Virus record (IMG/VR): IMGVR_UViG_2925939204_000001
Strand: one strand, 5' to 3'
DNA length: 64,000 nucleotides
Source: a virus
Taxonomy: Duplodnaviria > Heunggongvirae > Uroviricota > Caudoviricetes
In this document: piece by piece, positions 3,491 to 61,660 of the stretch
How positions within the stretch are numbered: the first letter of the stretch is position 1
How the letters are laid out: every line of letters starts with the position of its first letter
Notes under the pieces: model-generated
Seen by the model: only the letters and a program-made list of their open reading frames with translations
The model's database searches: none
Told to the model about the DNA's origin: nothing
Position numbers and translations under genes: made by a program

Positions 3491-3564
3491 CATCTTTTTA
3501 CCAGTCTATACAGTTTTAACATTCTCATTATCATCCCCTCGGTCATTTCCTGCCCGGGGGATTA

Positions 3565-3957
3565 ATGGAACAAATCAGCAGCGCAGAAATTGCGGATATC
3601 ATGATCAGGGCTGACTGCTATCTGACAGTCACTGAAATTACCACTCTCGCCAAAGAAAAATACCCTCATCTCCATGTTTCACGAGTAAGTGTAACTAACA
3701 TCATTCGTCATTTTGTTCGTTCAAGCAGGGCAATCTGTGAGCTGGATGATCGTGTGTATCCACGAAAATACTGGCTACATGGTCTAAACGGATATCAGTT
3801 CAAGGTGCGCGGGCGCACGCCTGAATACGGTAGCTTACTGGTTAAAAACTGTAGCAGGAAATCAGTCGAACAGGCGCGAAAAGAGCAACGAGAGCTGGTG
3901 GACATGGCGAATAAGCTGTGGAATGCCGCCGTTAAAAAGCGTGGTGTTGCTTTATGA
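3565..3957 (+). CDS. putative HTH regulator immediately upstream of pacA (Lpa-like by position)
   Basis: 130-aa ORF with HTH-like segment LTVTEITTLAKEKY; position corresponds to the late-promoter activator gene of P1-type phages; preceded by an operator-like site. Confidence 0.4.
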   Translation: MEQISSAEIADIMIRADCYLTVTEITTLAKEKYPHLHVSRVSVTNIIRHFVRSSRAICELDDRVYPRKYWLHGLNGYQFKVRGRTPEYGSLLVKNCSRKSVEQARKEQRELVDMANKLWNAAVKKRGVAL

Positions 3958-5318
3958 GTCTGGTTAATTGGGAGGAGCACCGCGCCCGCTTTATAGCGTT
4001 GCGTGAAGAAAAAGGGATCACTGTAAAGGAATACTGTGAGGAGCATGGCCTTAGCTTCAATACAGCCAGAAAGCATCTCAATATGAAAAAAAATGAGGTG
4101 CGGTCGCAGGTAAAGACAACAAAAAAAAGCACCAAATCACCTGAAAAAAAACGGGCGGGAAGAGCAACAAAAAAGCTGGAAGAGGGTGCAGAAAAAACAA
4201 AATTTACAGAAATTGACAATTCGCAGGGCGCAGGTTCTTTCCGAAGTATGCCGAGAAAGAAAACTTCGGATCATGAAAATAATGCGAATAATAACAATGA
4301 GATAAAAGAATCTGTCAGGAGATCATTGCGCGAAAAAATGGCGAAAATGATCCCCGAAGAAGATAAAAGCGCCCCAAAAATTGAGGGATCTTCTGCAATG
4401 ATCCCCGACGGTGCTGTGCAGCGTGCCACATTGCCCACTACGAATGTGGCTCGCGATATGATGAAGAACGGCGCAGAAGAACACCTGCGGTTAGCAATTC
4501 AAATGGCGCAAGAGCGCGCACTTCAGTATCAAAGCATTGTTGATCAGGAGGCCGAACGTCTACAGGCGGAAATAGACGCCTTGGGCGATAAAGAGCCAGA
4601 AGGAATGCACCCTGGGCAGCGCCTTCTCGGTCTAATCAGTGGCGCGGCCTACTACATGAATGATTTTATCAGTAGGTTGGCAGCTATATATCAGTCCGAA
4701 CAAAAGCTGCGACAGGGGGATGAAAAGCTTCGTCAGAGCGCTCGCCAGCAAGCATTCAAAGAGGCTGAGGCCAGAGAAAAACTCGAATTAGCACGCCTAC
4801 AGGCCGAACAGCGTGGCAAAGAGATTGAATATCGCATTGGCGCTGACGCACGCGCAGCCAGAGTTATCGCCGCCGCTATACGTATGCGTGAGCGCGAGGA
4901 ACTGGATGATATCGGTGTTGCTGAATACATCGAGCGCCAGGGTGTCAGCGTCCCGGCTATCCTCGCGGCGCGCGCGGCGAAAGCTATCACTCTTCTCGAA
5001 CCACCTGTTTCTGACGTCAATGATGTTGATGATGAACAGCTGGACAAAGAGGCAAGGGAGTTTGCAACGCTTCAGGCTAACCATCCGCAATGGCTGGCAG
5101 AGCGCCGGGCGGATGTGGCAACCATTGTTGAAGAATTGGGGTGCGGAGATTACGACCGCAATGGCGAGCGTAAAGCTGGAGAATTCGAGGCCAACGACGA
5201 AGAGCTGGATATTGACCCTTCGGCAACGGCTGAAATTTACGGTGATTATGATGTATCTGATGCAGGGTATGACGCCGGAGATGATGATATCGCGATAGAA
5301 CCGCCGGAGGATGATTAA
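3954..5318 (+). CDS. pacA: terminase small subunit PacA-like
   Basis: 454-aa ORF, N-terminus MSLVNWEEHRARFIALREEKGITVKEYCEEHGL (HTH-like), coupled to the large subunit; GATC-rich cluster inside 5' part. Confidence 0.7.
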   Translation: MSLVNWEEHRARFIALREEKGITVKEYCEEHGLSFNTARKHLNMKKNEVRSQVKTTKKSTKSPEKKRAGRATKKLEEGAEKTKFTEIDNSQGAGSFRSMPRKKTSDHENNANNNNEIKESVRRSLREKMAKMIPEEDKSAPKIEGSSAMIPDGAVQRATLPTTNVARDMMKNGAEEHLRLAIQMAQERALQYQSIVDQEAERLQAEIDALGDKEPEGMHPGQRLLGLISGAAYYMNDFISRLAAIYQSEQKLRQGDEKLRQSARQQAFKEAEAREKLELARLQAEQRGKEIEYRIGADARAARVIAAAIRMREREELDDIGVAEYIERQGVSVPAILAARAAKAITLLEPPVSDVNDVDDEQLDKEAREFATLQANHPQWLAERRADVATIVEELGCGDYDRNGERKAGEFEANDEELDIDPSATAEIYGDYDVSDAGYDAGDDDIAIEPPEDD

Positions 5319-12952: not shown

Positions 12953-13342
12953 TTAAATCACCGGACAATCATCAAATTCCCCACTTCGGGCATCATTGAT
13001 GGCATGAGTGATCACACCAAAAACAGCATTACTGCCCGTGTATCCATCGTCATCTACTGGTAACGCCTCTTTCTTCCCGGTGCTTAAGTCCTCCAGGTGC
13101 TGGCGCGGATACTTCCTGTATCTCTTTATGCGATATTCACCCTCCATAGCGCACACAAGCAGAGAACCATCAACCGGAGTAAGCGAGGAATCAACCACCA
13201 GCAAAGCACCCTGCAATATTCCCTCACGGTGATGGCTGTCTGCCGCCCGCATGAAGTAGGTCGCTGATGGATGCCTGATTAGTTGCTGATCAAGAGAAAT
13301 TCGGCTTTCAACATAATCCGCCGCAGGAGAAGGGAAGCCCAT
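12953..13342 (-). CDS. humD: HumD, UmuD'-like translesion synthesis accessory protein
   Basis: GFPSPAADYVE.RI.L.Q.LI.HPSATYF matches the UmuD core; lacks the UmuD N-terminal extension. Confidence 0.88.
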   Translation of the reverse strand: MGFPSPAADYVESRISLDQQLIRHPSATYFMRAADSHHREGILQGALLVVDSSLTPVDGSLLVCAMEGEYRIKRYRKYPRQHLEDLSTGKKEALPVDDDGYTGSNAVFGVITHAINDARSGEFDDCPVI

Positions 13343-36023: not shown

Positions 36024-36752
36024 TCATCTTTTTGAAAAATCAATTTCCGTTTTATCAAATAAATTTGAAATATCAGCAACCAATTTATTAAAATCATGAT
36101 CGCCATTATAAAGCGAAGTCTTCTTTATTGCCATTACAAAATCATATAACTTTTCTGGGGAGTCAATACCAACCCCTCTACTTTTAAAAAGCTCAATGAT
36201 AACTCCAACATCATCATATAATAACTTTATTGCCGCCATAATCTCTTTTTGCTGCCTAAGCAATCTCTCAAGTTCATTTTTATTTTCATCCATAATTCTT
36301 TTGTTGAATTGTGTATCATTAATACTTTTTATTATTTCAGCCTCTTTTATTTGCAACGCCTTTCTTTTATTTTGATCCATGTCAGCATCCAAATACCTTA
36401 TCTCTGTGTATATTTTACTTGTTAGCTTTGATACGCAAAGAGTGACAATCGGAGCTGCAATTGATGCAATAATTCCAAAAATAAATGGCAAGAAAAAATG
36501 ATAAAACCAAGGAGACAAAACGCCTTCATAAACTAGAGGAATCTTACCTCCAACAAATGTTACAGATAAAGTATATAGGATATCATCCTTTGACTTCATC
36601 AATATTAGTATATCTTTCCAATTAATAATTAGAAAAGAAATTAATATATATGCAAACACTTTATTAAAAAGCTTGTCTTTTATGGCATCTCCAAAAGATA
36701 CTTTGATTAGATCATTTTCAGTCAATTTTTCTGTTGATGAATCTGTATTCAT
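36024..36752 (-). CDS. AT-rich membrane protein, candidate defence/abortive-infection effector
   Basis: 242 aa; two hydrophobic helices then coiled-coil region; gene visibly much more AT-rich than neighbours; last gene of a minus-strand cluster. Confidence 0.55.
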   Translation of the reverse strand: MNTDSSTEKLTENDLIKVSFGDAIKDKLFNKVFAYILISFLIINWKDILILMKSKDDILYTLSVTFVGGKIPLVYEGVLSPWFYHFFLPFIFGIIASIAAPIVTLCVSKLTSKIYTEIRYLDADMDQNKRKALQIKEAEIIKSINDTQFNKRIMDENKNELERLLRQQKEIMAAIKLLYDDVGVIIELFKSRGVGIDSPEKLYDFVMAIKKTSLYNGDHDFNKLVADISNLFDKTEIDFSKR

Positions 36753-41353: not shown

Positions 41354-42259
41354 ATGAGATCAGTCGCTTTCAAAAATATCTTCATCTATCGTCTTTCACG
41401 CGAAGTTAGCTGGGATACTGCAGAAGTAAATGCAGCCCTTAGCAAGTTTGTGTTTACCCCATGCGGTTCTCAGGATATGGCTAAAGCTGGTTGGACCTCC
41501 GTTCTTGGTGACAACCTCACCCATGAATACCAGGGTTTTCTTCTGATACAGCATAAACGAGAGGAAAAAATCCTACCTTCTCAAGTGCTCAAAGAAGAGT
41601 TACAGAAAAAAATCCTGACACTTGAAGAAGAGCAAGACAGAAAGCTGAAGAAGACCGAAAAAGATTCGCTGAAGGATGAAGTGCTTCACTCTCTTCTTCC
41701 TCGTGCTTTCACGAGAAAATCACTCGCCAAAATCCTGATCGACCGCAGCAACCATCTGGTATTCGTTGAGGCAAGCAGCGCCAAAAAGGCAGAGGACCAG
41801 CTGGCTTTATTGCGAAAATCGCTCGGCAGCCTGCCTGTCATTCCATTCACACCACGCGAACCGCTGGAAATTACAATGACCGAGTGGTTTAAAAACGGCT
41901 TCCCTGCCGGATTTACAGCAGGTGAAGACGCCACATTAAAGGGTCTGCTCGATAATGGTGGTGCCGTTCGCTGCAACAAAGTTGATCTACAGTCCGACGA
42001 GATTATGTCTCACATTGAGGCGGGGAAAGTAGCTACGACCGTTGCAATTAACTGGATGGACCGCGCGTCGTTCAGAGTCAACGATGATATGAGTATCAAA
42101 GCCCTGACATTCTGTGATGATCTCTATGACCAGAACGACGATATCGACCGGGAGGATGTAGCACAACGATTTGATGCTGATTTCGTGCTCTTTACGGGCG
42201 AATTATCTGCACTGTTTAACGCGCTGGTGGAGGCCATTGGCGGTGAAGCAGAACGTTAA
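41354..42259 (+). CDS. hrdC: RdgC homologue (recombination-associated protein)
   Basis: Collinear similarity to E. coli RdgC, e.g. [60 protein letters not shown]. Confidence 0.85.
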
Positions 42260-44399
42260 CCTTCGATATGGTTCAGTTTGCAGTGGAATTGAAGCCGCGA
42301 GCATTGCCTGGGAACCGTTGGGTATGCGTCCGGCGTGGTTTGCTGAAATTGAGCCTTTTCCATCTGCCGTTCTTGCGCACCGCTGGCCTCATATCGCCAA
42401 CCTTGGCGATATGACAAAACTTGCCAAAAAAGTCCTGGCTGGGGAAATCGAATCCCCTGATGTGCTCGTCGGGGGAACACCTTGTCAGGCATTCAGTATC
42501 GCGGGATTACGTGGTGGGCTTGATGATGAGCGCGGCGCGCTAACTTTGAAGTATGTGGAGCTTGCAAATGCAATTGACGACAAACGGTCTGAGTCCTTCC
42601 TCAAACCGACAGTTATCGTCTGGGAAAATGTCCCAGGAGTCCTGTCATCGGCAGATAACGCCTTCGGATGTTTCCTTGCCGGATTGGCTGGAGAAGATGC
42701 ACCATTTGAACCAGGTGATCGACCTGAATCAGGAAAAAGTAACGCGTTCTGGCGGTGGGATGGCAAAACCGGTTGCCATGCTCCAAAGTGGCCGCAGTGT
42801 GGTTGTATTTATGGACCGCAGCGAAAGGTGGCCTGGAGAATACTTGATGCCCAATACTTCGGAGTGGCACAACGACGCCGACGCGTGTTTGTTGTCGCAA
42901 GTGCTCGAACAGACCTCGATCCCGCAACGGTACTTTTTGAGTTCGAAGGCGTGCGCCGGGATATTGCGCCGAGCAGAGGCGAGGGGAAGGAAGTTGCCGG
43001 AAATGTTGGAAATGGCATTAAAAGCGGGAGCCATTGGGATAACCCTGTAAATCCTCACCCGACACTTGCCCGATCGCACAATACCGGCGGGACGGGTGCA
43101 AGCAACCAGGAGATTTTTTCACAGCGCGGAAGTGGGCTTGTCGGTGCTTACCGGATGGTAGCATTTGGTGAGTATGCGGATGATGAGGCGGCTTCCACGG
43201 TCAAGGCCAGAGATTTTAAGGATGCAACCGACCTGGCTGTTTTTGACAGTGCGAACGTCGGAGTGGCAGTACGTCGCTTAACGCCTGTCGAGTGCGAACG
43301 CCTGCAGGGCTTTCCTGACGGGCACACGTTGATCCCTACGGAAAAGCGTAAAAAAGTTTCTTCAGATGAACTGGCATACCTTCGCAATCACTATCCAGAT
43401 TTAAGCGAAGAAGAGGCCGCGATGCTTGCAGCTGACGGACCGCGTTACAAAGCGATCGGCAACAGCATGGCAGTTCCTGTTATGCAATGGATAGGGTGTC
43501 GCATTCTTGCGACCGTAGCGGATAAACAGCAAAAAACAATAAATACCATTACCTACACAAGAAAACTCCGGACTCCGGATGAATATGAACGCCCAATATT
43601 CAAATGGGTAGGCGGTAAATTCTCAGAGTTGCCTACAGTGCTTGAGCATCTACCACACGGCAAGCGGTTAATAGAACCATTCGTTGGTGGCGGTTCCGTA
43701 TTTACGAATGCAGGATTTCGCCACAACCTGCTTAATGATATTAACGGTGACCTGATTAACTTCTATCAGACATTGCAGCGAGAGGGACATTCGCTCGTCA
43801 CGCTGGCATATAGTTTTTTCAAAAATTACAACAACGCTGACGCTTACCTCGAAGTGCGCGAGGCATTTAACAGAGGAAAGTATGACCAGCTACATCATGC
43901 TGCCGCCTTTTTGTACCTTAATCGGCACTGTTTTAATGGCGTAACGCGGTACAACCAAAATGGCGAGTTCAACGTGGGGTATGGCAAATACAAAGCGCCC
44001 TACTTCCCACATGCAGAGATGGAGGCATTTTTGGCTGATGACGTACTCAAAAACACGTCCTTTGTATCAGGTGACTTTGCTGGCGTCATCGAGGCGGCTG
44101 GTGAAGGCGATGTGATTTTTTGCGATCCGCCGTATGAACCGCTGCCGGATACAGAAGGGTTTACCAGTTATTCAGGAAATAGCTTCCGTTTCGACGAACA
44201 GAAACGGCTGGTATCTCTATTGGTGGAAGCCCACCAGCGCGGCGCTAAGGTAGTGATAACAAATAGTGGTGCGCCAAACATCCGTGAACTATATGAACGA
44301 AACGGGTTTAAAGTACATCATATGGCAGCCAGACGGTCGGTGTCCTGCAAGGCGTCAACACGTGTAGTTGCTAACGATATAATTGCAATAATGAAGTAA
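42171..44399 (+). CDS. dmt: bifunctional DNA methyltransferase Dmt (N-terminal C5-cytosine MTase, C-terminal Dam-like N6-adenine MTase)
   Basis: C5-MTase motifs GTPCQAFS and ENVPG; Dam-type DPPY motif in C-terminal half; real start probably near GTG 42243 just before the hrdC stop. Confidence 0.85.
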
Positions 44400-44447: not shown

Positions 44448-46109
44448 TTAACCTAACTTCGCCCAGGTATCACGCAGCCCAACGGTGCGGTTAAATACCG
44501 GTTTTTCCGCCGTAGAATGGCGGCTGTCGAGGCAGAAATAACCTTCACGCTCAAACTGGAATGCTTTACCCGCTACCGCTTCTTTCAGCGACGGTTCAGC
44601 AAAACCCTGTTTGATCACCAGCGATTCCGGGTTAATCACCGACAGGAAATCATCCGCAGCACCTGGGTTCGGCACGCTGAACAGACGATCGTACAGGCGG
44701 ATTTCAACCGGCAGCGCATGTGCCGCGCTCACCCAGTGAATAACGCCTTTCACTTTACGACCATCTGCCGGATCTTTGCTTAAGGTGTCGGCGTCATAAG
44801 TACAGAAGATGGTGGTGATATTGCCTTCGGCATCTTTCTCCACGCGTTCAGCCTTAATGACGTAAGCATTACGCAGACGCACTTCTTTACCCAGCACCAG
44901 ACGTTTGTACTGCTTGTTAGCTTCTTCGCGGAAATCGGCGCGGTCGATCCAAATCTCACCGCTAAACGGCACCTGACGGCTACCCATTTCCGGTTTGTTT
45001 GGATGGTTCGGCATGGTGACCATTTCGCCTTCGCCCTGGTAGTTTTCGATAACCAGTTTCACCGGATCGATAACCGCCATTGCGCGCGGCGCATTTTCGT
45101 TGAGATCTTCACGGATGCAGGATTCCAGCGACGCCATCTCAATGGTGTTGTCCTGCTTGGTCACGCCGATGCGTTTGCAGAACTCACGAATAGAAGCCGC
45201 AGTGTAACCACGACGACGCAGACCGGAAATGGTCGGCATACGCGGGTCATCCCAGCCTTCAACGTGCTTGTCGGTCACCAGCAGGTTCAGCTTACGCTTG
45301 GACATCACAGTGTATTCCAGATTCAGGCGCGAAAATTCGTACTGGCGCGGGTGAACAGGAATGGTGATGTTGTCCAGTACCCAGTCATACAGACGACGGT
45401 TGTCCTGGAACTCAAGCGTACACAGAGAGTGCGTAATACCTTCCAGCGCATCGCTGATGCAGTGGGTGAAGTCGTACATCGGGTAGATGCACCACTTGTT
45501 GCCAGTCTGGTGATGTTCAGCAAACTTAATGCGGTACAGCACCGGGTCGCGCATCACGATAAACGGCGAAGCCATGTCGATTTTCGCACGCAGGCAGGCT
45601 TTACCTTCTTCAAAACCACCGGCACGCATTTTTTCGAACAGCGCCAGGTTCTCTTCAACGCTGCGGTCGCGGTACGGGCTGTTTTTACCCGGCTGCGTCA
45701 GGGTGCCGCGGTATTCGCGGATCTGTTCCGGCGTCAGTTCGTCAACATACGCCAGGCCTTTGTTGATCAGTTCAACAGCATAGGCATGGAGTTTGTCAAA
45801 ATAATCGGAGGAGTAACGGATGTTGCCAGACCAGTGAAAACCTAACCATTCAACGTCGTTTTTAATCGACTCGACGTACTCGATATCTTCTTTTACCGGG
45901 TTAGTGTCGTCGAAACGCAGGTTGCACTGGCCTTTATAGTCCTGGGCGATCCCGAAGTTCAGGCAGATAGATTTCGCATGACCAATATGCAGATAGCCAT
46001 TCGGTTCCGGCGGGAAACGGGTATGTACTGTGGTGTGCTTACCACTGGCCAGATCTTCATCGATGATCTGACGAATAAAGTTAGTCGGGCGGGCTTCTGC
46101 CTCACTCAT
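44448..46109 (-). CDS. glnS: glutaminyl-tRNA synthetase
   Basis: 553 aa with class I HIGH ([11 protein letters not shown]) and KMSKS (VMSKR) motifs; full-length match to E. coli GlnRS as I recall it. Confidence 0.95.
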
Positions 46110-46377
46110 TGTGGATTCCTCAAAGCGTAAACAACGTATAACAGCGTATGATCTTATAAGCCGAATAGGCTGACAACCACTAGTTGATTAGAAATTACTT
46201 TCTATCGTTATTTCAATAATGAGCTTTTTCATGAAGCCCACTTTTGCGCATAAGTAAATTAATGACAAATGGTACACAATTGGAACCAAAAAGGATGTAA
46301 AGGTGCACCAAATTAGTGGTGTATTGGTGCACCTTTGGTTCAAGACTTTTTAAGTTCTAAAACCAACCTGAAAGACT

Positions 46378-46665
46378 TTATTTTGCTTCCTCAGACTCCG
46401 CTAACATGAGGATAGCATGGCGGATCATATTCAATTTGCTGCGATTATGCTTTTTGCTCAACGCATCAAGTACCTGGTACTCGTATTCATTGAAACCAAC
46501 ACGAATAGATTTAAAATCACGTGGAGCGTCCTTATCGAGCACTTTGTTGTCTTCTGGTTGCTCACCCGGCACCAAATCAGCCTTACTTGCAAAATCCTCA
46601 ATTCGGCGTTCAAGATCGGGGTCTTTTACTTCGGGGGCTTTTACCGATTTACGAGGCTTAATCAC
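46378..46665 (-). CDS. ParG-like centromere-binding protein (ribbon-helix-helix)
   Basis: 95 aa; basic flexible N-terminus and C-terminal RHH-like segment; immediately downstream of, and overlapping, the ParF-like ATPase gene. Confidence 0.5.
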   Translation of the reverse strand: MIKPRKSVKAPEVKDPDLERRIEDFASKADLVPGEQPEDNKVLDKDAPRDFKSIRVGFNEYEYQVLDALSKKHNRSKLNMIRHAILMLAESEEAK

Positions 46666-47329
46666 TTAATAACTCCTTAACCAACATCTGGATTTCACCT
46701 TTAGCTTTCCCGTTGTCCATCTCAACAACGCCCTTCCCTTCAGCCATGCAATCGCGGTAAACCTTACGATCACGAATGATGGTTTTCAGCAACTTCAGTT
46801 GCGGATATTCAGCCAGGTACTCTTTGGCCTCATTGGTTTCATTCACAACCGGATTGGATGGGGCCATTGTTAAGACTGCGAACGCCTTAATGCTAGGATT
46901 AGGCATCAGGTCCAAAGCCTCTTCAAACACTTCAACAAAGTGTGCCAGCGTGTCTAAATCTGGTTGAGATGGTCTGAATGGGACCAACACAATATCTGCA
47001 GCGGTTATGCCTGTACGCATCTCTTTGCTATCGCGCCCGGCTGTATCAACAACAACAAATTCATAACGCTTATCCAGATCGAGAAGTGTTTCTCGAATAT
47101 TACCAAACTTCTGGACACAATGAATTACAGGAGAAACCTCTGCCGTGTTACGGTCAGCTGCCCAGCGGGCAGCTGTTCCTTGCTTGTCTGCATCTAGTAA
47201 CACTACATCCTTATTTGCGCGGGCAAGCTCCGCACAGATGTTTACGCTTGTGGTTGATTTTCCACAGCCACCTTTTTGGCTGACTACCAATATAATCATA
47301 TCCGTTCCTCGGTGTGATTTTGGTATCAA
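46658..47329 (-). CDS. ParA/ParF-family partition ATPase (small type Ib)
   Basis: Deviant Walker A VVSQKGGCGKST; probable real start at internal Met (MIILVV...). Confidence 0.8.
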   Translation of the reverse strand: MIPKSHRGTDMIILVVSQKGGCGKSTTSVNICAELARANKDVVLLDADKQGTAARWAADRNTAEVSPVIHCVQKFGNIRETLLDLDKRYEFVVVDTAGRDSKEMRTGITAADIVLVPFRPSQPDLDTLAHFVEVFEEALDLMPNPSIKAFAVLTMAPSNPVVNETNEAKEYLAEYPQLKLLKTIIRDRKVYRDCMAEGKGVVEMDNGKAKGEIQMLVKELLSD

Positions 47330-47580
47330 AACGGTTCCAGATAAGAGCCTTTTTGATGCGGGACAGGCTCTATAATGGAGTCATGAATGTTTGGCAAAGT
47401 ATAACATCAATCAGACCAAATACACCTTATATTGCATCCTATTTAACACGAAATCAGCCCTAAATTGGAACCAGATACAAAATTGCACCATAACAGCACC
47501 TAAATGGTGCCAGTTCAACACTAATTAGACACCATTAAGGCACAAAAAGGGCTGCAATTTGCAGCCTTAAACCAGCACAT
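47330..47580. repeat. iteron-like repeat cluster upstream of the ParF-like gene (putative centromere/operator)
   Basis: Repeated AAATTGGAACCA / AAATTGCACCAT / AAATGGTGCCAG units; related units also at 46241-46320 and 50255-50300. Confidence 0.4.
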
Positions 47581-47586
47581 CTTCTG

Positions 47587-47931
47587 TCAATCAGGTAGAG
47601 AGTCAGCCAGATTGCGCGCCGACGCGCTTTTGGCAACAACTTGCTCCTTCACTGGCTCAATGGAGGCAGGGCGCTCCTCAACCGCAGCTGGTAGTTCCAG
47701 GAAGGATGCCAGCATTTTTCGGATCAGCTCCGGGTTATTGTCTTCGGTCAGCAGGGAAGCCAGTAATCCTGGAAGCCTGCTATCGACTTCTCCCAGCGCA
47801 AGCCCTGCCAACAATGCAGTTCTTGCCATATCGCTATGTTTTTTTATCTTCTCGCTCGCCGCCTTTTCATTGGCATAAGCCTCTGGGCGAAGATAAATCA
47901 TCACTTTCTTACGTTCCTGAGACATGGACAT
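47587..47931 (-). CDS. ParR/StbB-like partition adaptor (114 aa)
   Basis: Small protein directly downstream of the ParM-like gene; assignment by position and size. Confidence 0.45.
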   Translation of the reverse strand: MSMSQERKKVMIYLRPEAYANEKAASEKIKKHSDMARTALLAGLALGEVDSRLPGLLASLLTEDNNPELIRKMLASFLELPAAVEERPASIEPVKEQVVAKSASARNLADSLPD

Positions 47932-47937
47932 ACCTCG

Positions 47938-48918
47938 TTAACCGATTGCTTTCAGGCCATGAACAAGAGCAAGTTGCGGGTCATCCGCCACGAAGAAACG
48001 GTCATCACGAATATTAACTTGCTCGCGAATTGCATCTGCCACCAGCGGTGCGCCACCACCGATCACCATGACATGCGTATATCCTTTAAAGTCGCCAATC
48101 ACATCAAGAACGCGGGTACGCAGACGGTCAATGCTTGCGGCAATGGCCTTTTTCACATCACCAATCGCTGATGGGTCATTGATATTGTCGTTCAGATAAT
48201 CTTCATCGTGGCGGTTAATAATGAGCTGATCAACATTGTAATTTGACGTTTCGGTATTGGCTCTGGCAAGTGCTTGCCTTACTTCCCTGGTAACCAGAGA
48301 GACGCCAAGATTCGAATCGCCAAAAACACGGGAAACTGCCGTCATTTGCCCGGCGACCATTGAAACATCAAGGGTAGTTCCACCCAAATCGACGATAAGA
48401 ATAGAATGGGCAGGGTTCAGATTGTCGCACAGGCCAATTCCTGCCGGAATAGACTCCGGTCGTACCGTAACTTTCTTAATCGTGAACACATTGCCTTTAT
48501 TCAGCGTGACGGGGCGCATAAGGCTGGCTTTCTTGCGCTCGATGTTATCGAGATTGTATTGCGCGTCGTCGTCGTAAAACTCCGCCAGAGGCAGCGTGAC
48601 CACAATTTCTACTTCCTGCGGCTCAATGCCACTTGTCAGCAGGGCATGGTGAACAGCCAGGACGTTAAGCGGGCTGTATTGCCATTCCACGTTATTCGTC
48701 GGCAGAACATCTGGCGAGATCAAATCATACGAATACTTTTCGTCGTCAATGACATAGTTAAACGGCTTGCCAGCACCAAATGTTGCTGACCATCCGCGCT
48801 TAAAGCTGTTAGGGCTGATGTGAGTGCGAGTTTCCCCGTCGTGCTCCCACAGCATTTTGATATTGGTTGAACCATCATCGATAAAAATGCGCATCTTCTT
48901 GCTCCACTTCTGAGACAC
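47938..48918 (-). CDS. parM: ParM/StbA actin-like partition ATPase
   Basis: Actin-fold phosphate motifs IFIDDGSTNIK and LIVDLGGTTLD, GGGAP near C-terminus. Confidence 0.75.
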   Translation of the reverse strand: MSQKWSKKMRIFIDDGSTNIKMLWEHDGETRTHISPNSFKRGWSATFGAGKPFNYVIDDEKYSYDLISPDVLPTNNVEWQYSPLNVLAVHHALLTSGIEPQEVEIVVTLPLAEFYDDDAQYNLDNIERKKASLMRPVTLNKGNVFTIKKVTVRPESIPAGIGLCDNLNPAHSILIVDLGGTTLDVSMVAGQMTAVSRVFGDSNLGVSLVTREVRQALARANTETSNYNVDQLIINRHDEDYLNDNINDPSAIGDVKKAIAASIDRLRTRVLDVIGDFKGYTHVMVIGGGAPLVADAIREQVNIRDDRFFVADDPQLALVHGLKAIG

Positions 48919-49090
48919 ATTTGAGAATCAAAATGTAATTTTAAAAGAGAAGCACCCAAAAATCCACACCAAACGAGATAAAGAAGAGCGATTGTTGAGT
49001 TTATTTTGAGAATATCTTGATCACCCACCGAATGATGGTCTGACAGTGAGATTTATTTGAGAACGAATTGAGAATGCAAAAATATTCCGA
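48919..49090. repeat. parC-like centromere/promoter repeats upstream of parM
   Basis: Five TTGAGAA(T/C) units between 48920 and 49076. Confidence 0.4.
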
Positions 49091-49160
49091 AATTTAACTC
49101 TCCGTTTGAATGACGAAATAACAAAGTGATGACAATAGGAGGATAACCAGGAGGTGAAGA

Positions 49161-49445
49161 ATGAGCGCAATAGCCACCAGCGACACCCTTTGTTCTGGTC
49201 ACGGAGGATTTCCGCCGCGACTGGTAGCTGAAACCGTTCCCTGGTTCACCGTTAACGGTAAGCCAGTTGTTGTAGATGGTGCCATGTTTCCCAGTCACAC
49301 TGACGGTAACAGTGCACATCCAGGGGCAGCTGTATCGACGCGAGTATGGTTTTCGATAGGTGGAAAGGGAGTTGTCTGTGTAGGCGATCCGCTTTCTTGT
49401 GGTTCTGTTATCGCCAACGGCGAGGATATTTTTCAGGTTGCATAA
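49161..49445 (+). CDS. PAAR-like spike tip protein
   Basis: 94 aa Gly-rich protein with CSGHGG...VNGKPVVVDGA...CVGDPLSCGSV pattern reminiscent of PAAR repeats. Confidence 0.45.
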   Translation: MSAIATSDTLCSGHGGFPPRLVAETVPWFTVNGKPVVVDGAMFPSHTDGNSAHPGAAVSTRVWFSIGGKGVVCVGDPLSCGSVIANGEDIFQVA

Positions 49446-50251
49446 TGCTTGATTCAATAGGTGAAGTTAAAGCCTTCAAAATTCTGTCAGATGCCGGTAT
49501 CTCTACACCAGAATCTATAACCATAAGCCGGGCAGCTTCTGTAAAAGCCTCATCGCTCGCCAGCGCCATACAGGGAATAGTTCACGCCGATAAAACCTAT
49601 CCTGATTCTGTTTCGGCCTGGACTACTCAATTGCTTGGCTTTTCTGAACAGCTCAATGAGGCCAGCAAAGCGTCTTCATCACTGGCTGATTCTCTTTCCC
49701 CATACACCAAGCCATCAGAGCTGTTACAGATGAAGATTGGCTGGGAATGCTACGCAAAAGGTAACGAGCTGACCCCCATACCTGCTTTCGCCCTTGTTGA
49801 GGGAATGGGGAATGTTTCCATTCCGCAATCTCTAACGGACGCATTGACGGCGCTAAAACTTGATGCTCTGAAAACCGCCATGAACGCCATTAACGCAAAA
49901 ATTGAAGCTGCCGGAAGTGCTGGTGGTGGTGATAGCAATGGTGGACAGGGTGGTGCTGGGGGCGCTCAGGCTCCAGTCATTACTCAGGATGAAATTGATG
50001 CTTTACGGGAAGCAGTGACAGCCGCCGAAGCTTTACTCTCCGAAATTAACTCAGCAAGTGAGAGTGTCGTAGCCCTTACAGGTCGCATTAAAACGTCAAC
50101 CACTCAGGCAACCAAAGGTTTAGAGAACGCTGTCGCCATCACGTTAACTGGTTCTCTACTGGATGATGCAGTAATGAGTCCGGCACTCAGTTTAATCATG
50201 CCACAAGGCGTTATCGATGCGCTCCAAAAGAACACCAAAAAGGAACCATAG
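49445..50251 (+). CDS. hypothetical protein (268 aa), Ala/Ser-rich
   Basis: ATG overlaps the stop of the PAAR-like gene (TAATG). Confidence 0.5.
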   Translation: MLDSIGEVKAFKILSDAGISTPESITISRAASVKASSLASAIQGIVHADKTYPDSVSAWTTQLLGFSEQLNEASKASSSLADSLSPYTKPSELLQMKIGWECYAKGNELTPIPAFALVEGMGNVSIPQSLTDALTALKLDALKTAMNAINAKIEAAGSAGGGDSNGGQGGAGGAQAPVITQDEIDALREAVTAAEALLSEINSASESVVALTGRIKTSTTQATKGLENAVAITLTGSLLDDAVMSPALSLIMPQGVIDALQKNTKKEP

Positions 50252-50306
50252 CAACACCACTTAGGCACACAAAAGGATGTAAATTGGCACATGTTTAACA
50301 CCAAAA

Positions 50307-50780
50307 ATGAACCTGAAGAGGATGGTTTTGAAAAAGATAATTTTGATTGTAATTGCGCTTTTAGCCATTTCTGGAATTTACCGAACAACGACGGCAGTTA
50401 TCGAACACATCAGGTATGTCCGATCGCTTGAAGACTCAAAATCACAACTGGAAAGCACGAACAACACGCTTTCTGCCGCATTACAGTTAAGTGAGAACGC
50501 TCGCTCAGCCATGCTGACCGAAAACGAAAGAATTAAAGCACTGGAAAAGGAGTACCAGCGCAAAACAGCAGAACTGAATGCCAACCTAATCAAACAACGA
50601 GAGGAAAGCCAGAATGAAATCACTCGCCTTGAAAATGCGTTACGCCGTGCTGGGATTAACGATGTGCGTGTGCCTGATGACGTTATCAGGATGCAGCGGG
50701 AACGGGCAAAAGCCATCAACCAGCGTGCCAGTGAAAATTACCGTAGAAGCCACCAGCAAGCCGCAGGCAAATCTGATTGA
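50307..50780 (+). CDS. Rz-like i-spanin
   Basis: N-terminal TM anchor then coiled-coil periplasmic domain; contains an embedded out-of-frame lipoprotein ORF. Confidence 0.5.
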   Translation: MNLKRMVLKKIILIVIALLAISGIYRTTTAVIEHIRYVRSLEDSKSQLESTNNTLSAALQLSENARSAMLTENERIKALEKEYQRKTAELNANLIKQREESQNEITRLENALRRAGINDVRVPDDVIRMQRERAKAINQRASENYRRSHQQAAGKSD

Positions 50781-50940
50781 TTACTCCCCTTGTTTAGTGC
50801 CAGAGGACACGCCAGTGCTGTTAAACAAGTATCCGACATACGCTGAACAGTTATTCAGCACGATCGACGAATGCAACCAACGAAACGCACTGAATAACCA
50901 AAGAAACAGGGAGATTTGGGAAGGGAAGGGGCGGCAGTGA
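50614..50940 (+). CDS. Rz1-like o-spanin lipoprotein (overlapped architecture)
   Basis: Lipobox LSGC after signal peptide; starts inside the Rz-like gene in another frame and extends beyond it. Confidence 0.45.
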   Translation: MKSLALKMRYAVLGLTMCVCLMTLSGCSGNGQKPSTSVPVKITVEATSKPQANLIDYSPCLVPEDTPVLLNKYPTYAEQLFSTIDECNQRNALNNQRNREIWEGKGRQ

Positions 50941-51307: not shown

Positions 51308-51523
51308 ATGGTTAATGCCAATCCTTGCGCACGCCCGGAATTTATCTGGCGCTTTTATTCCTGCACAAAACACACCTACATCAGCGTAATGGCAGCTACT
51401 GAGGCTGAAGCGCGTTCATTTCTTCCTACAGATCCATGCATTTTTGCCGCTCGCTTTAAACTCGATGCTCTGGACGTTTTGACCTACTGGAACCGCCCAA
51501 TGAACTGCGTGGAGGTGCATTAA
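51308..51523 (+). CDS. Icd-like small protein (71 aa)
   Basis: Paralogue of 30664..30879 (shared EFIWRFYSC...VMAATEAEARS...PCIFAARF...NCVEVH). Confidence 0.5.
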   Translation: MVNANPCARPEFIWRFYSCTKHTYISVMAATEAEARSFLPTDPCIFAARFKLDALDVLTYWNRPMNCVEVH

Positions 51524-52521
51524 TGGACGCAGTAACTATCAATAACAAACCATTCCCGACTCTCGAATATAAAAATCAGCGTGTAGTGACCTTTGAGATG
51601 ATTGATGAGGTGCACGAACGTGTTGATGGGGCAGCCAGGGGAACATTTAAGCGAAACAGAAGTCGTTTCATTGAAGGGGTGGATACTTATGTTATTGATT
51701 ATTCTGAAAAGGGCTTTTTAAGCCCATTTGGAATTGATGTCCCCCCGCGCGGTTTGCGCGTGTTCACTGAGTCCGGCTATCTGATGATTGTTAAGTCATT
51801 CAATGACGATCTGGCCTGGCAAGTGCAACGTGAGCTGGTAAACAGCTATTTTCGTATTAAGCAATTAATACCGGAGCACTCACCGCTAAAATCAAAAGCC
51901 GAAATCCTGGCCGAAATGGCGCAAATGCATCTTGAGCATGAACGCCGGATCAACGCCGTAAATGCCCAGGTAGCCGAGGTATCAGCACAAGTATCGATGG
52001 TCGCTGAAACACTCGAGCAAATCAAGAAAGGCAATATTCCGGAAGGCTACATTGGCTACCGCCAGCTGGCGGCGAAATGTGGCCTGACTGAAGCAAAATG
52101 TCGCAACCTGGTCAACGCTTACCGGATTCCCACCGATACGCATGAGTTTTTAACTCCCGATGGTTTGCTTGCGCGACGCTCCATTGTGGCCCTGGCCCCC
52201 TTCCGGAAAGCCTTTAAGCAGGTGATGTCGGAGGCAGAACCACGCAATAAACGCTGGTATCATCCAAAGATGGGGATGTTTCAGGCAATCCACCATCCTG
52301 TGCCTGAAAGCCCAAAGGATAATCTGTCACTACATACCGTCAGAGAGAAGATCAGGACTGGATACGCAACAGTGTGTCGTCGTTCTTCCTGGCCTGAAGG
52401 TATATGGGTGTGGCCCGAAGGTGGATCACGAAAGCACTGGCGCACTATCCGGGACGGGAAAATCCATGCTATTGATTTAGCGCCAGAGGATATTGTTGCT
52501 ACGGACTGGATTGTTAGTTAA
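51523..52521 (+). CDS. antirepressor-like protein (KilA-N/Bro-N-type N-terminal domain, shared Ant C-terminal domain)
   Basis: N-terminal ~110 aa unrelated to 30879..31820; C-terminal ~210 aa near-identical. Confidence 0.6.
   Translation: MDAVTINNKPFPTLEYKNQRVVTFEMIDEVHERVDGAARGTFKRNRSRFIEGVDTYVIDYSEKGFLSPFGIDVPPRGLRVFTESGYLMIVKSFNDDLAWQVQRELVNSYFRIKQLIPEHSPLKSKAEILAEMAQMHLEHERRINAVNAQVAEVSAQVSMVAETLEQIKKGNIPEGYIGYRQLAAKCGLTEAKCRNLVNAYRIPTDTHEFLTPDGLLARRSIVALAPFRKAFKQVMSEAEPRNKRWYHPKMGMFQAIHHPVPESPKDNLSLHTVREKIRTGYATVCRRSSWPEGIWVWPEGGSRKHWRTIRDGKIHAIDLAPEDIVATDWIVS
51887..52521. repeat. ~635-bp direct repeat, copy 2 (partner at 31185..31820)
   Basis: Near-identical DNA with a handful of substitutions. 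Confidence 0.85.
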
Positions 52522-60606: not shown

Positions 60607-61391
60607 GACTGCTGATAGGTAAATTTTATCCTGGTAACTTTGCCGCCTTCCGTCACCTCTGAGAAGACTATTTTCATTTTTGTATTTTTTTCAATCTCTG
60701 CTACAGCCTTCGTTAAAAAACTTCTCTTAAATTCGGCATACCGCTGATAGCTTTTTGGTAACCCATAACGCTCCCGCATCCATTCGACGCCAAGTATGGC
60801 AAAGCCGCTTCCATCATCCTTCCTGTACTGGCATAAGGACTCATAAAGCCGCATAGAATAAGGATTTGTAAGGCGAGATACTTCGGTAAAATTCAGCCTT
60901 GTGAATCTCTTATCAAGCAGAGTAAAAAACGGCATGAGATATGGATTAAGATGAATAATGTAAGTCCCGCGCCGTGGTGAATAGGCATCCTTAATCATCC
61001 AGGGATAAGACTCATAACTGTCTTCTGATTCGGTCGATTCATCAGGGTTATATATCGTAACTTTCTTCTCGCTAAGACCTGAAATGGCCTTACGAATATC
61101 CTTGCTGGCTTCAGCAGAGGGCAAATTATACATCTCTGCATATTCGTTGACCGTCAACTCACAGGCACCTGAACCAAGAACGCCATCCTTAGAAGCATAG
61201 CGAAGTCTTCCCACCACAATAAACAACAGTCGCTTTTGGTCGCGAGTCAGGTGATAAGCAGCCTCCGTGATCTCATTGGCTTGTGCCAGACTACGACTAA
61301 TAGGTGTCGCTGACTCAATCAGGCTGACGGCTTTTGCTGTTAATTCCGCTCTGTTCATAACCCTGTGTGATCCTTCAAATGGTGAGGGCAA
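60603..61391 (-). CDS. repA: iteron-binding plasmid replication initiator RepA
   Basis: ORF bracketed by iteron arrays on both sides as in the P1 R replicon; probable real start at internal Met (MNRAELTA...) since the first iteron overlaps the upstream codons. Confidence 0.7.
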   Translation of the reverse strand: MPSPFEGSHRVMNRAELTAKAVSLIESATPISRSLAQANEITEAAYHLTRDQKRLLFIVVGRLRYASKDGVLGSGACELTVNEYAEMYNLPSAEASKDIRKAISGLSEKKVTIYNPDESTESEDSYESYPWMIKDAYSPRRGTYIIHLNPYLMPFFTLLDKRFTRLNFTEVSRLTNPYSMRLYESLCQYRKDDGSGFAILGVEWMRERYGLPKSYQRYAEFKRSFLTKAVAEIEKNTKMKIVFSEVTEGGKVTRIKFTYQQS

Positions 61392-61500
61392 TTTTTACAC
61401 CACTTTGAGGGCAATTACTACACCTTTTGAGGGCAAATCTTACACCTTCTGAGGGCAAATCTTACACCGATCGTATTTAATTGAGGGCAAATCTTACACC
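61383..61500. repeat. incC-like iterons (5 direct copies of TGAGGGCAA(A/T)TNTTACACC)
   Basis: Five ~19-bp direct repeats at roughly 22-23 bp spacing immediately upstream of repA. Confidence 0.65.
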
Positions 61501-61660
61501 AGCCTCCTCTACAGCCCGCGCCACTACTGGCCCCAGCGACGCCTAAAAAGGATCTAAAAAGGATTAAAAATGGAAAAAGGTTTATAAAAATACTCTGTGG
61601 ATATGTGAGTAGCGTCACTTAAGGTGTAAAAATCACCCTCAATAATCGCTTCTCGACCGG
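61500..61660. other. putative plasmid origin region (oriR-like)
   Basis: AT-rich segment with GATC sites, DnaA-box-like TGTGGATAT and one inverted iteron, adjacent to incC-like iterons. Confidence 0.4.

Follow-up and report, generated by a model that had tools for sequence, protein, structure and literature searches.

In 2001 Ebersbach and Gerdes are said to have described two partition systems on plasmid pB171, par1 consisting of parMR with parC, and par2 having the order parC1-parA-parB-parC2. The two systems, one of type II and one of type Ib, lie next to each other, and parC1 and parC2 flank the parAB genes (PMC4270457, PMC7602700, PMC6519299). Repeat arrays located upstream of the operon and also downstream of it are found in the type Ib systems of pB171, pSM19035 and pESBL (PMC7602700). 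In pSM19035 the ribbon-helix-helix (RHH) protein omega contacts its ATPase through an unstructured N-terminal tail, and three parS arrays overlap the promoters of different genes (PMC3074150). Here we describe a comparable double locus in a stretch of 64,000 nucleotides from a tailed phage (IMG/VR record IMGVR_UViG_2925939204_000001; hereafter the window). Over 46100-50400 the window shares 100% identity with the E. coli plasmid NZ_CP020051.1 (91,291 bp), and the identity to Escherichia phage D6 is 98.5%.

In our judgement this is probably the plasmid-maintenance locus of a D6-type phage-plasmid, with two independent partition operons in tandem, and we propose that the small RHH protein of its type Ib operon acts at a family of 11-bp repeat arrays. 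D6-like phage-plasmids, common in E. coli, Salmonella and Shigella, rely on loci of this kind to be carried stably; about 100 plasmids from these hosts match at least 80% of the region. The locus is a further case of known kinds of system, and its gene content has been annotated already. The D6 record gives the order orf62 (glnS), orf61 (hypothetical), orf60 ('possible ParA'), orf59 (StbB-type), orf58 (StbA-type), orf57 (upfC/PAAR) and orf56 (upfB), and 'cop, parA, stbB and parM' have been named as the partition genes of D6-like plasmids (PMC6799933). Among deposited phages, only D6 has both partition ATPases together. The 11-bp iteron family and its three conserved arrays, on the other hand, appear to be undescribed in the literature that could be checked here, to which the D6 genome paper did not belong.

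Two partition operons in tandem

Both par operons are on the minus strand, head to tail, with the type II pair upstream of the type Ib pair and 255 bp between the parR stop and the parA start codon. A preliminary description of the window had claimed two unrelated partition cassettes in this arrangement, each with its own upstream repeat cluster. This was borne out: the open reading frames (ORFs) lie where they had been placed, both cassettes seem intact, and each has iterons upstream, namely array B and an inverted set for the type Ib operon and TGAGAAT iterons for the type II operon. The Walker motifs of ParA and the nucleotide-binding motifs of ParM are complete, so that both ATPases have the catalytic residues that the claim required.

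The ORF at 47938-48918 (minus strand) matched the Pfam families StbA_N (1.8e-69) and ParM C-terminal domain (3.7e-55). Its probable start is the ATG at 48894 (MRIFIDDGS, preceded by GGAG), in agreement with the annotation of D6 and RefSeq, which gives a ParM/StbA actin-like ATPase of 318 aa (47938..48894; D6 orf58). The protein aligned end to end with the structures of R1 ParM (1mwk, 4a62; 1e-111), and the motifs DDGSTNIK and DLGGTTLD are kept. The Asp of the second motif (D170 in R1) is essential in R1 ParM and in Shigella StbA (PMC6519299), and its equivalent is retained here in DLGGTTLD. Immediately downstream of parM lies the gene for a ParR/StbB adaptor of 112-114 aa (47587..47931, minus strand; D6 orf59), which matched Pfam Plasmid_stab_B (3.5e-11) and the structure of pB171 ParR (2jd3, 1e-6).

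The region upstream of parM contains a putative type II centromere, parC (48907..49079, plus strand), recognised by its repeat family, by core counts and by its footprint across alleles. It is made up of seven or eight 11-bp units of the TGAGAAT type with the core TGAGA, at 48911, 48922, (48974), 48996, 49007, 49047, 49058 and 49069, in groups of 2, 2(3) and 3; the unit at 48974 is a possible one only. The 5-mer TGAGA occurs six times in this region, where 0.16 occurrences are expected, and TTGAGAA has four copies in 48921-49074 out of 13 on both strands of the whole 64 kb. For comparison we used four diverged D6-like relatives (L003, L004, L018 and L019), which between them are the plasmids of E. 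fergusonii, S. dysenteriae and E. marmotae and CP042620. In L003 and L004 the TGAGA cores have stayed unchanged, whereas the spacers differ. The repeat units noted earlier at about 48920-49076 are thus real, and they are TGAGAAT iterons at 11-bp spacing. A sigma-70-like match, by consensus only, was seen at 49057-49086 on the plus strand (TTGAGA, an 18-nt spacer and AATATT), pointing toward upfC; its -35 element coincides with a ParR iteron. ParR binding at this iteron could affect transcription of upfC and upfB.

The first gene of the type Ib operon lies in the ORF 46658-47329 (minus strand), which matched Pfam AAA_31 (2e-17), CbiA, MipZ and VirC1, all of them ParA-type Walker ATPase families. 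The ATG at 47299 (MIILVVSQKGG, preceded by GAGGA) is the probable start and again agrees with D6 and RefSeq. The resulting ParA of 213 aa (46658..47299; D6 orf60) is a small deviant-Walker-A ATPase of the type Ib size class (about 200-220 aa, without an N-terminal DNA-binding domain). KGGCGKST, D38 and D85 are invariant in the alignment, and the nearest solved relative is TP228 ParF (4dzz, 1e-18).

The start of the second gene (46378..46665, minus strand; D6 orf61) overlaps the parA stop. It encodes a candidate centromere-binding protein of 95 aa whose N-terminus (MIKPRK) is basic; a helix is predicted at residues 16-29, and an RHH domain at about 50-93 forms the C-terminal part. The protein itself had no Pfam match at E <= 0.01; in the PDB, searches with the single sequence and with a profile yielded matches to CopG below threshold only, and BLASTP found no significant match to the ParB of L006, a pB171-type IncF locus that served as the stand-in for pB171 in our sequence comparisons. 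A word-indexed homologue search returned close relatives only. A full HMMER search yielded 101 cluster representatives of 55-130 aa, 75 of which were scanned against Pfam: 24 matched NikA-like, 17 RHH_1 and others RHH_7, TraY or TacA, which are all ribbon-helix-helix families. From these matches and the predicted architecture we assign the 95-aa protein an RHH fold. Its relatives have a basic N-terminus of the type M-I/V-K-x-R in common, which could be a tail contacting the ATPase, as in other type Ib proteins (PMC3074150). A small RHH protein, without helix-turn-helix, encoded directly downstream of parA is what the type Ib class has. The protein had been called ParG-like. The term suits its architecture and fold, a small RHH protein with an N-terminal extension, encoded downstream of ParA and translationally coupled to it, but not its sequence family: there was no match to the Pfam ParG profile, and the 75 relatives gave general RHH families only.

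The two cassettes look like separate transcription units. A terminator scan found an intrinsic-terminator-like hairpin after parR (47550..47566, minus strand; GGCUGCA-AAU-UGCAGCC followed by CUUUUUGUG), which is conserved in L003 and L004.

The 11-bp iterons proposed for the type Ib system

Three arrays of degenerate iterons with a G/A-N-A-C-C core and an A/T-rich tail, set out in 11-bp register, were found around the locus. Array A (about 7 units; 46270..46346, plus strand) lies downstream of the type Ib operon, was recognised by periodicity, matrix score and conservation, and contains a perfect 13-bp inverted repeat (46299-46311 and 46324-46336). Array B (about 13 units; 47411..47550, plus strand) is situated just upstream of the parA promoter region and abuts the parMR terminator. 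Array C (about 8 units; 50230..50321, plus strand) is at a distance of 2.7 kb, with upfB on one side and a spanin-like gene on the other, and covers the last upfB codons, a 55-bp gap and the first codons of the spanin-like gene. In addition, an inverted set of about 4 units (47316..47361, minus strand), whose best six-unit run reaches about 47381, separates the probable promoter from the parA start and is read as a proximal operator. The earlier observation of 'AAATTGGAACCA units' at 47330-47580 was correct in that the repeats exist, as degenerate 11-bp iterons; they do not fill that range, however, but are found mainly at 47411-47550 and in the inverted set, with the best four units at 47316-47361.

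The periodicity is pronounced. Self-match at a lag of 11 reached 0.49 in array A and 0.45-0.51 in array B, compared with a mean of 0.25 (sd 0.05) in the window. When all 90-bp segments of the 64 kb were ranked by self-similarity at lags of 11 and 22, those at 47471 (array B), 46256 (array A), 50201 (array C) and 48931 (parC) came second, third, fifth and sixth; the first rank was taken by 22-bp iterons on the rep side. Raised 11/22-bp self-similarity was also seen at 36181-36555 (inside the ORF 36024-36752, minus strand), 4111-4200 and 13171-13260, and none of these segments fits the par iteron matrix. Tandem Repeats Finder picked up none of the par arrays, which are too degenerate for it.

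With a matrix derived from array B alone, the highest-scoring direct arrays of the 64 kb besides B itself were C and A (z 5.3 for C), and the inverted set scored 21.1. When the whole 91-kb plasmid was scored, the six best runs all fell within arrays A, B and C, and no other such array was present. The arrays were found equally with a matrix built only from the iteron units of the Serratia plasmid pELP1.10. For runs of six units this matrix gave scores of 50.1 for array B, 38.3 for C, 29.4 for the inverted set (47316-47381), 24.6 for the proximal part of B and 23.2 for A; the maximum over 60 Markov shuffles of the window was 13.8 (mean 5.0), and 32 kb of P1 gave 9.7. The four-unit scores were 33.1 for C, 27.4 for the inverted set (minus strand) and 21.8 for A.

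On pELP1.10 itself (L010), a ParA is encoded together with a small protein about 50% identical to the 95-aa protein. G/A-N-A-C-C units lie directly upstream and downstream of its par operon, and three further arrays surround the next gene (3554-4192, hypothetical) within 3520-4340, which suggests that proteins of this RHH family may commonly control neighbouring genes. The association is not confined to Serratia. In all six unrelated plasmids that encode a homologous small protein (from Serratia, Acinetobacter, Arsenophonus, Rahnella, Aeromonas and Marinobacter), the best run with the D6 matrix lay no more than about 130 bp from the operon and exceeded the maximum of the plasmid's own null. 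At control type Ib loci with unrelated small proteins (the pB171-type L006 and the pESBL-type L005) no such arrays were found. Because the motif tracks the small-protein family and is absent from the control loci, the simplest reading is that the RHH protein binds the iterons. Arrays upstream and downstream of the operon, as formed here by B and A, are characteristic of type Ib systems, and a like layout exists at the homologous loci of the six plasmids.

It might be argued that the arrays are no more than phased A-tract curved DNA, or sites of RepB, IHF or a phage repressor. The units are indeed A/T-rich and phased at 11 bp, the 22-bp iterons on the RepB side also hold TACACC, and array C lies far from the type Ib operon beside a lysis-type gene. 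We nevertheless think this very improbable. The motif follows the small-protein family over six plasmids with different replication genes and is missing from the control type Ib loci, the rep iterons score only 8.6 with the matrix as against 23-50, and the positions of the arrays, on the upstream and the downstream side of the operon, are those known for type Ib centromeres (PMC7602700). That the arrays are RepB iterons is ruled out, since motif and period differ. The likely centromere of the type Ib system is in this way defined by the 11-bp G/A-N-A-C-C iteron, which a broad, unnamed family of ParA/RHH cassettes has in common with it, and it comprises three conserved arrays.

The D6 lineage has kept the arrays as well. 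In the four diverged relatives the identity of the small protein is 78-95%, and the intergenic DNA is partly unalignable; the top matrix matches still fall at A, B and C in all four, and at the inverted set in three of them (L003, L018 and L019). Motif and phase of array B are kept in L003 and L004 although the sequence has diverged, and those of array C in all four relatives despite substitutions. Among the D6-lineage alleles the RHH region is nearly identical, so that they are not informative on covariation between small protein and iterons. A further allele with 56% identity, L009 (pMUB-MIN14-1), was dropped: its ORFs are broken and look frameshifted.

These conservation data bear on the question of whether both cassettes partition the plasmid. 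One of them might be redundant, decaying or repurposed as a regulator, an incompatibility or exclusion determinant, or a conditional system. ParAB and StbAB of Shigella pINV look redundant in a temperature-dependent manner (PMC6519299), and the type Ib allele is the more variable one here, the small protein being 78% identical in L003/L004 compared with 84-92% at the DNA level for the ParMR region. Both operons, however, have their full length and complete motifs in about 100 plasmids of E. coli, Salmonella and Shigella, and both centromere-like regions keep their iteron cores while the spacers diverge, which is still compatible with conditional redundancy. We therefore consider a single working cassette unlikely, but give it more weight than any other alternative, and retain two functional systems as the preferred reading.

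Expression of the type Ib operon may be linked to its iterons. TGTTATACT on the minus strand (47398..47406) is a candidate extended -10 of the parA operon, proposed from its conservation: AGTATAACA is invariant in three otherwise diverged alleles. A consensus promoter scan found no canonical -35/-10 pair at this position. If TGTTATACT does act as the extended -10, array B would cover the -35 side and the leader would contain the inverted set, a layout that we infer to be one of autorepression. At the other end of the operon, the minus-strand RNA of array A has a folding energy of -24.8 kcal/mol (z -6.35) with a run of U behind it, and the array may double as the operon terminator. The parM upstream region contains no G/A-N-A-C-C array by matrix scoring of the window, which argues against direct cross-repression of parM by the type Ib protein.

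Because of the homology to R1 and pB171, the type II system would be expected to work by filament growth. The seven or eight TGAGAAT iterons in front of parM would become covered by ParR dimers, and the ParR-parC complex would capture the ends of ParM-ATP filaments, the growth of which would separate sister plasmids. In the type Ib system the 95-aa RHH protein would bind the arrays of G/A-N-A-C-C iterons, and its basic N-terminal tail would stimulate the nucleoid-bound ParF-like ATPase, so that plasmids become spaced along the nucleoid. At array B and the inverted proximal set the same protein would also repress its own operon promoter. Binding, autoregulation, the partition activity of each cassette and the role of array C are what we infer for the locus. 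A more speculative and rather doubtful extension is that the RHH protein, through array C over the start of the spanin-like gene together with array B, may bridge or silence the intervening 2.7 kb, which contain the ParMRC locus and the PAAR/upfB genes. This would couple the two par systems or tie maintenance to late or lysis genes. In the Serratia relative, five arrays around a neighbouring gene hint that multi-array regulation is a habit of the family.

Several observations weigh against the picture of two independent operons and an iteron-binding RHH protein. The hairpin after parR has a folding energy of -11.5 kcal/mol but a z-score of only -1.3, and 18 of 200 shuffled sequences fold as well. 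A consensus sigma-70 scan found no convincing promoter for parM on the minus strand. The iterons are degenerate, with an information content of about 0.2-1 bit per position, and the units from which the matrices were derived had been aligned by eye; cross-validation of the matrices from one plasmid to another was, however, carried out. The four-unit score of array A barely exceeds the shuffle maximum of 19.6, so that the support for this array comes from six-unit runs, periodicity, position and conservation. Array C is part coding and some of its conservation may be at the protein level. Finally, the A-rich tracts are in 11-bp phase, and intrinsic curvature or another protein could contribute.

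Gene order and neighbouring genes

The preliminary description had also noted a shared element of about 40 bp at three sites, and had taken the copies as brackets around a modular insertion of the par block and glnS into the tail-gene region. The similarity is real (79% over 33 nt between 47529-47561 and 50254-50286; 78% over 27 nt between 46282-46308 and 50264-50290), but the element is the stretch in which arrays A, B and C resemble each other most, and its copies are parts of the 11-bp arrays rather than brackets. The copies might nevertheless mark the ends of a mobile or recombined cassette, or scars left by one. At the edges of the segment formed by par and upfCB, arrays A and C have a direct orientation to each other, P1 has neither cassette at that position, and the megablast similarity of L003 and L004 begins only inside array B, so recombination does happen there. 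On the other hand, one copy (B) sits between the cassettes and not at an edge of the block, the similarity belongs to longer periodic arrays, and the same motif flanks homologous operons on unrelated, non-phage plasmids. In the block we saw neither a transposase or integrase gene nor any other recombinase ORF, and no target duplication or terminal inverted repeat; no relative with an empty site was present among 131 matching plasmids. The gene order is alike in every D6-like record examined; since D6, about 100 D6-like plasmids and the four diverged relatives share the arrangement, it belongs to the backbone of the lineage. An inserted cassette is hence the least credible of the alternatives, and is already largely refuted. 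We regard the par block as D6-lineage backbone and see in its sequence no recent bracketed insertion.

Nor is the separation of tail genes special to this element. In P1, about 9 kb of non-structural genes likewise lie between upfC/upfB and the baseplate genes 5-6-24-7, and P1 carries its own rep and par genes in the same island. The P1 order is 21-22-23, parS-parB-parA-incA-repA-oriR and upfA-mlp-ppfA-upfB-upfC, followed by the divergent uhr-hrdC-dmt...ban-dbn and then 5-6-24-7. In D6 types the two par cassettes occupy the slot divergent from upfC, hrdC-dmt are co-oriented with gene 5, and RepB is encoded about 11-12 kb away. As judged from gene order, the difference between D6 and P1 is a module replacement between sister lineages and not an interruption peculiar to one of them.

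The gene glnS (glutaminyl-tRNA synthetase; 44448..46109, minus strand; Pfam tRNA-synt_1c, 6e-130) is a neighbour of the par block, but not part of it as had been supposed. It has been stated to be present in all D6-like genomes (PMC6799933). Contrary to this, it is absent between dmt and the small par protein gene in the D6-like plasmids L004, L018 and L019 (E. marmotae, S. dysenteriae and CP042620), in all of which both par cassettes are retained. As it comes and goes separately, glnS behaves as an independent addition (moron) separable from the block. Two ideas about the locus are corrected in this way, that its repeats mark an insertion and that glnS is one of its members.

On the other side of the block, upfC (PAAR; 49161-49445) and upfB (49445-50251) form a plus-strand pair (49161..50251) recognised by Pfam PAAR_motif (4.5e-6), by the D6 annotation 'similar to P1 upfC/upfB' and by the P1 map. 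They are P1-backbone genes between parC and array C, outside both par systems. The following ORFs 50307-50780 and 50614-50940 overlap, one having an N-terminal membrane helix and a coiled coil and the other a lipobox (LSGC). The two resemble an i-/o-spanin pair, in the place that ppfA/mlp have in P1, and array C overlaps the first start.

Other features of the window deserve mention. At 61383-61468 there are 3.9 copies of a 22-bp unit (TGAGGGCAAATCTTACACCTTT), and at 61543-61570 there are 2.6 copies of an 11-bp unit (CTAAAAAGGAT), beside the RepB gene of NZ_CP020051; the repeats at 61383-61570 are probably the plasmid origin with its iterons, about 11-12 kb from the par block. A single ORF of 742 aa at 42171-44399 fuses a C5-cytosine methylase and a Dam-like methylase, where D6 has two annotated genes (orf64 and orf63) and the E. 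marmotae plasmid one long gene. Icd-like and ORF6N/KilA-N-type genes at 51308-52521 are also present in NZ_CP020051, but not at that position in D6, a minor difference in accessory genes among members of the lineage.

Relation to known partition systems

The nearest known arrangement is the double par locus of pB171. In both cases one type II and one type Ib system are adjacent on a low-copy enterobacterial replicon, and the proteins of the pB171-type locus L006 are 43% (ParM), 43% (ParA; 8e-59) and 32% (ParR) identical to those described here. The finding of a pB171-like pair in the D6 lineage provides targets for work on stability, incompatibility and curing, namely two proteins and four DNA sites. 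The pB171 operons, however, are divergent and share one regulatory region (PMC6519299), and those of L006 are divergent too. In the D6 type the two operons follow one another on the minus strand, separated by a terminator-like hairpin, and the central parC1 region shared by divergent operons is absent. The small DNA-binding protein has no detectable sequence similarity to the ParB of L006, which in turn lacks the G/A-N-A-C-C arrays. A third, remote array is present, and the host replicon is a phage-plasmid.

The type Ib pair resembles ParF/ParG of TP228 in that ParF is the nearest solved relative of the ATPase and that ParG, its partner, is small, dimeric and of the RHH type and has a flexible tail at the N-terminus, an architecture like that predicted here. 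Apart from the missing match to the ParG family in the Pfam scan, ParG is also shorter (76 aa) and its sites are arranged otherwise. The type II pair resembles ParMRC of R1 in the full-length match of ParM with its nucleotide-binding motifs, and in the 11-bp-spaced iterons upstream of parM. R1 parC is also made of 11-bp iterons, in two groups of five, whereas the iterons here have a sequence of their own and number seven or eight in three groups. ParR matches pB171 StbB (2jd3) and no R1 entry of the PDB.

For a number of arrays above two, and for their position beside genes outside the par operon, there is a precedent in the delta/omega system of pSM19035, whose three arrays are separate and built of short repeats without gaps (PMC3074150). 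It belongs to a Firmicute plasmid, its 7-bp heptads (WATCACW) differ from the 11-bp units, and its proteins are unrelated in sequence. In the sister phage-plasmid lineage the task of partition falls to ParABS of P1 (type Ia), which occupies the same non-structural island, with the baseplate genes on one side and the capsid/sheath genes on the other. P1, however, relies on a single type Ia system, with a large ParA, ParB and a parS with an IHF site, beside repA. The D6 types have no homologue of P1 ParABS at the par block and carry there, at a distance from RepB, the type Ib and type II pair.

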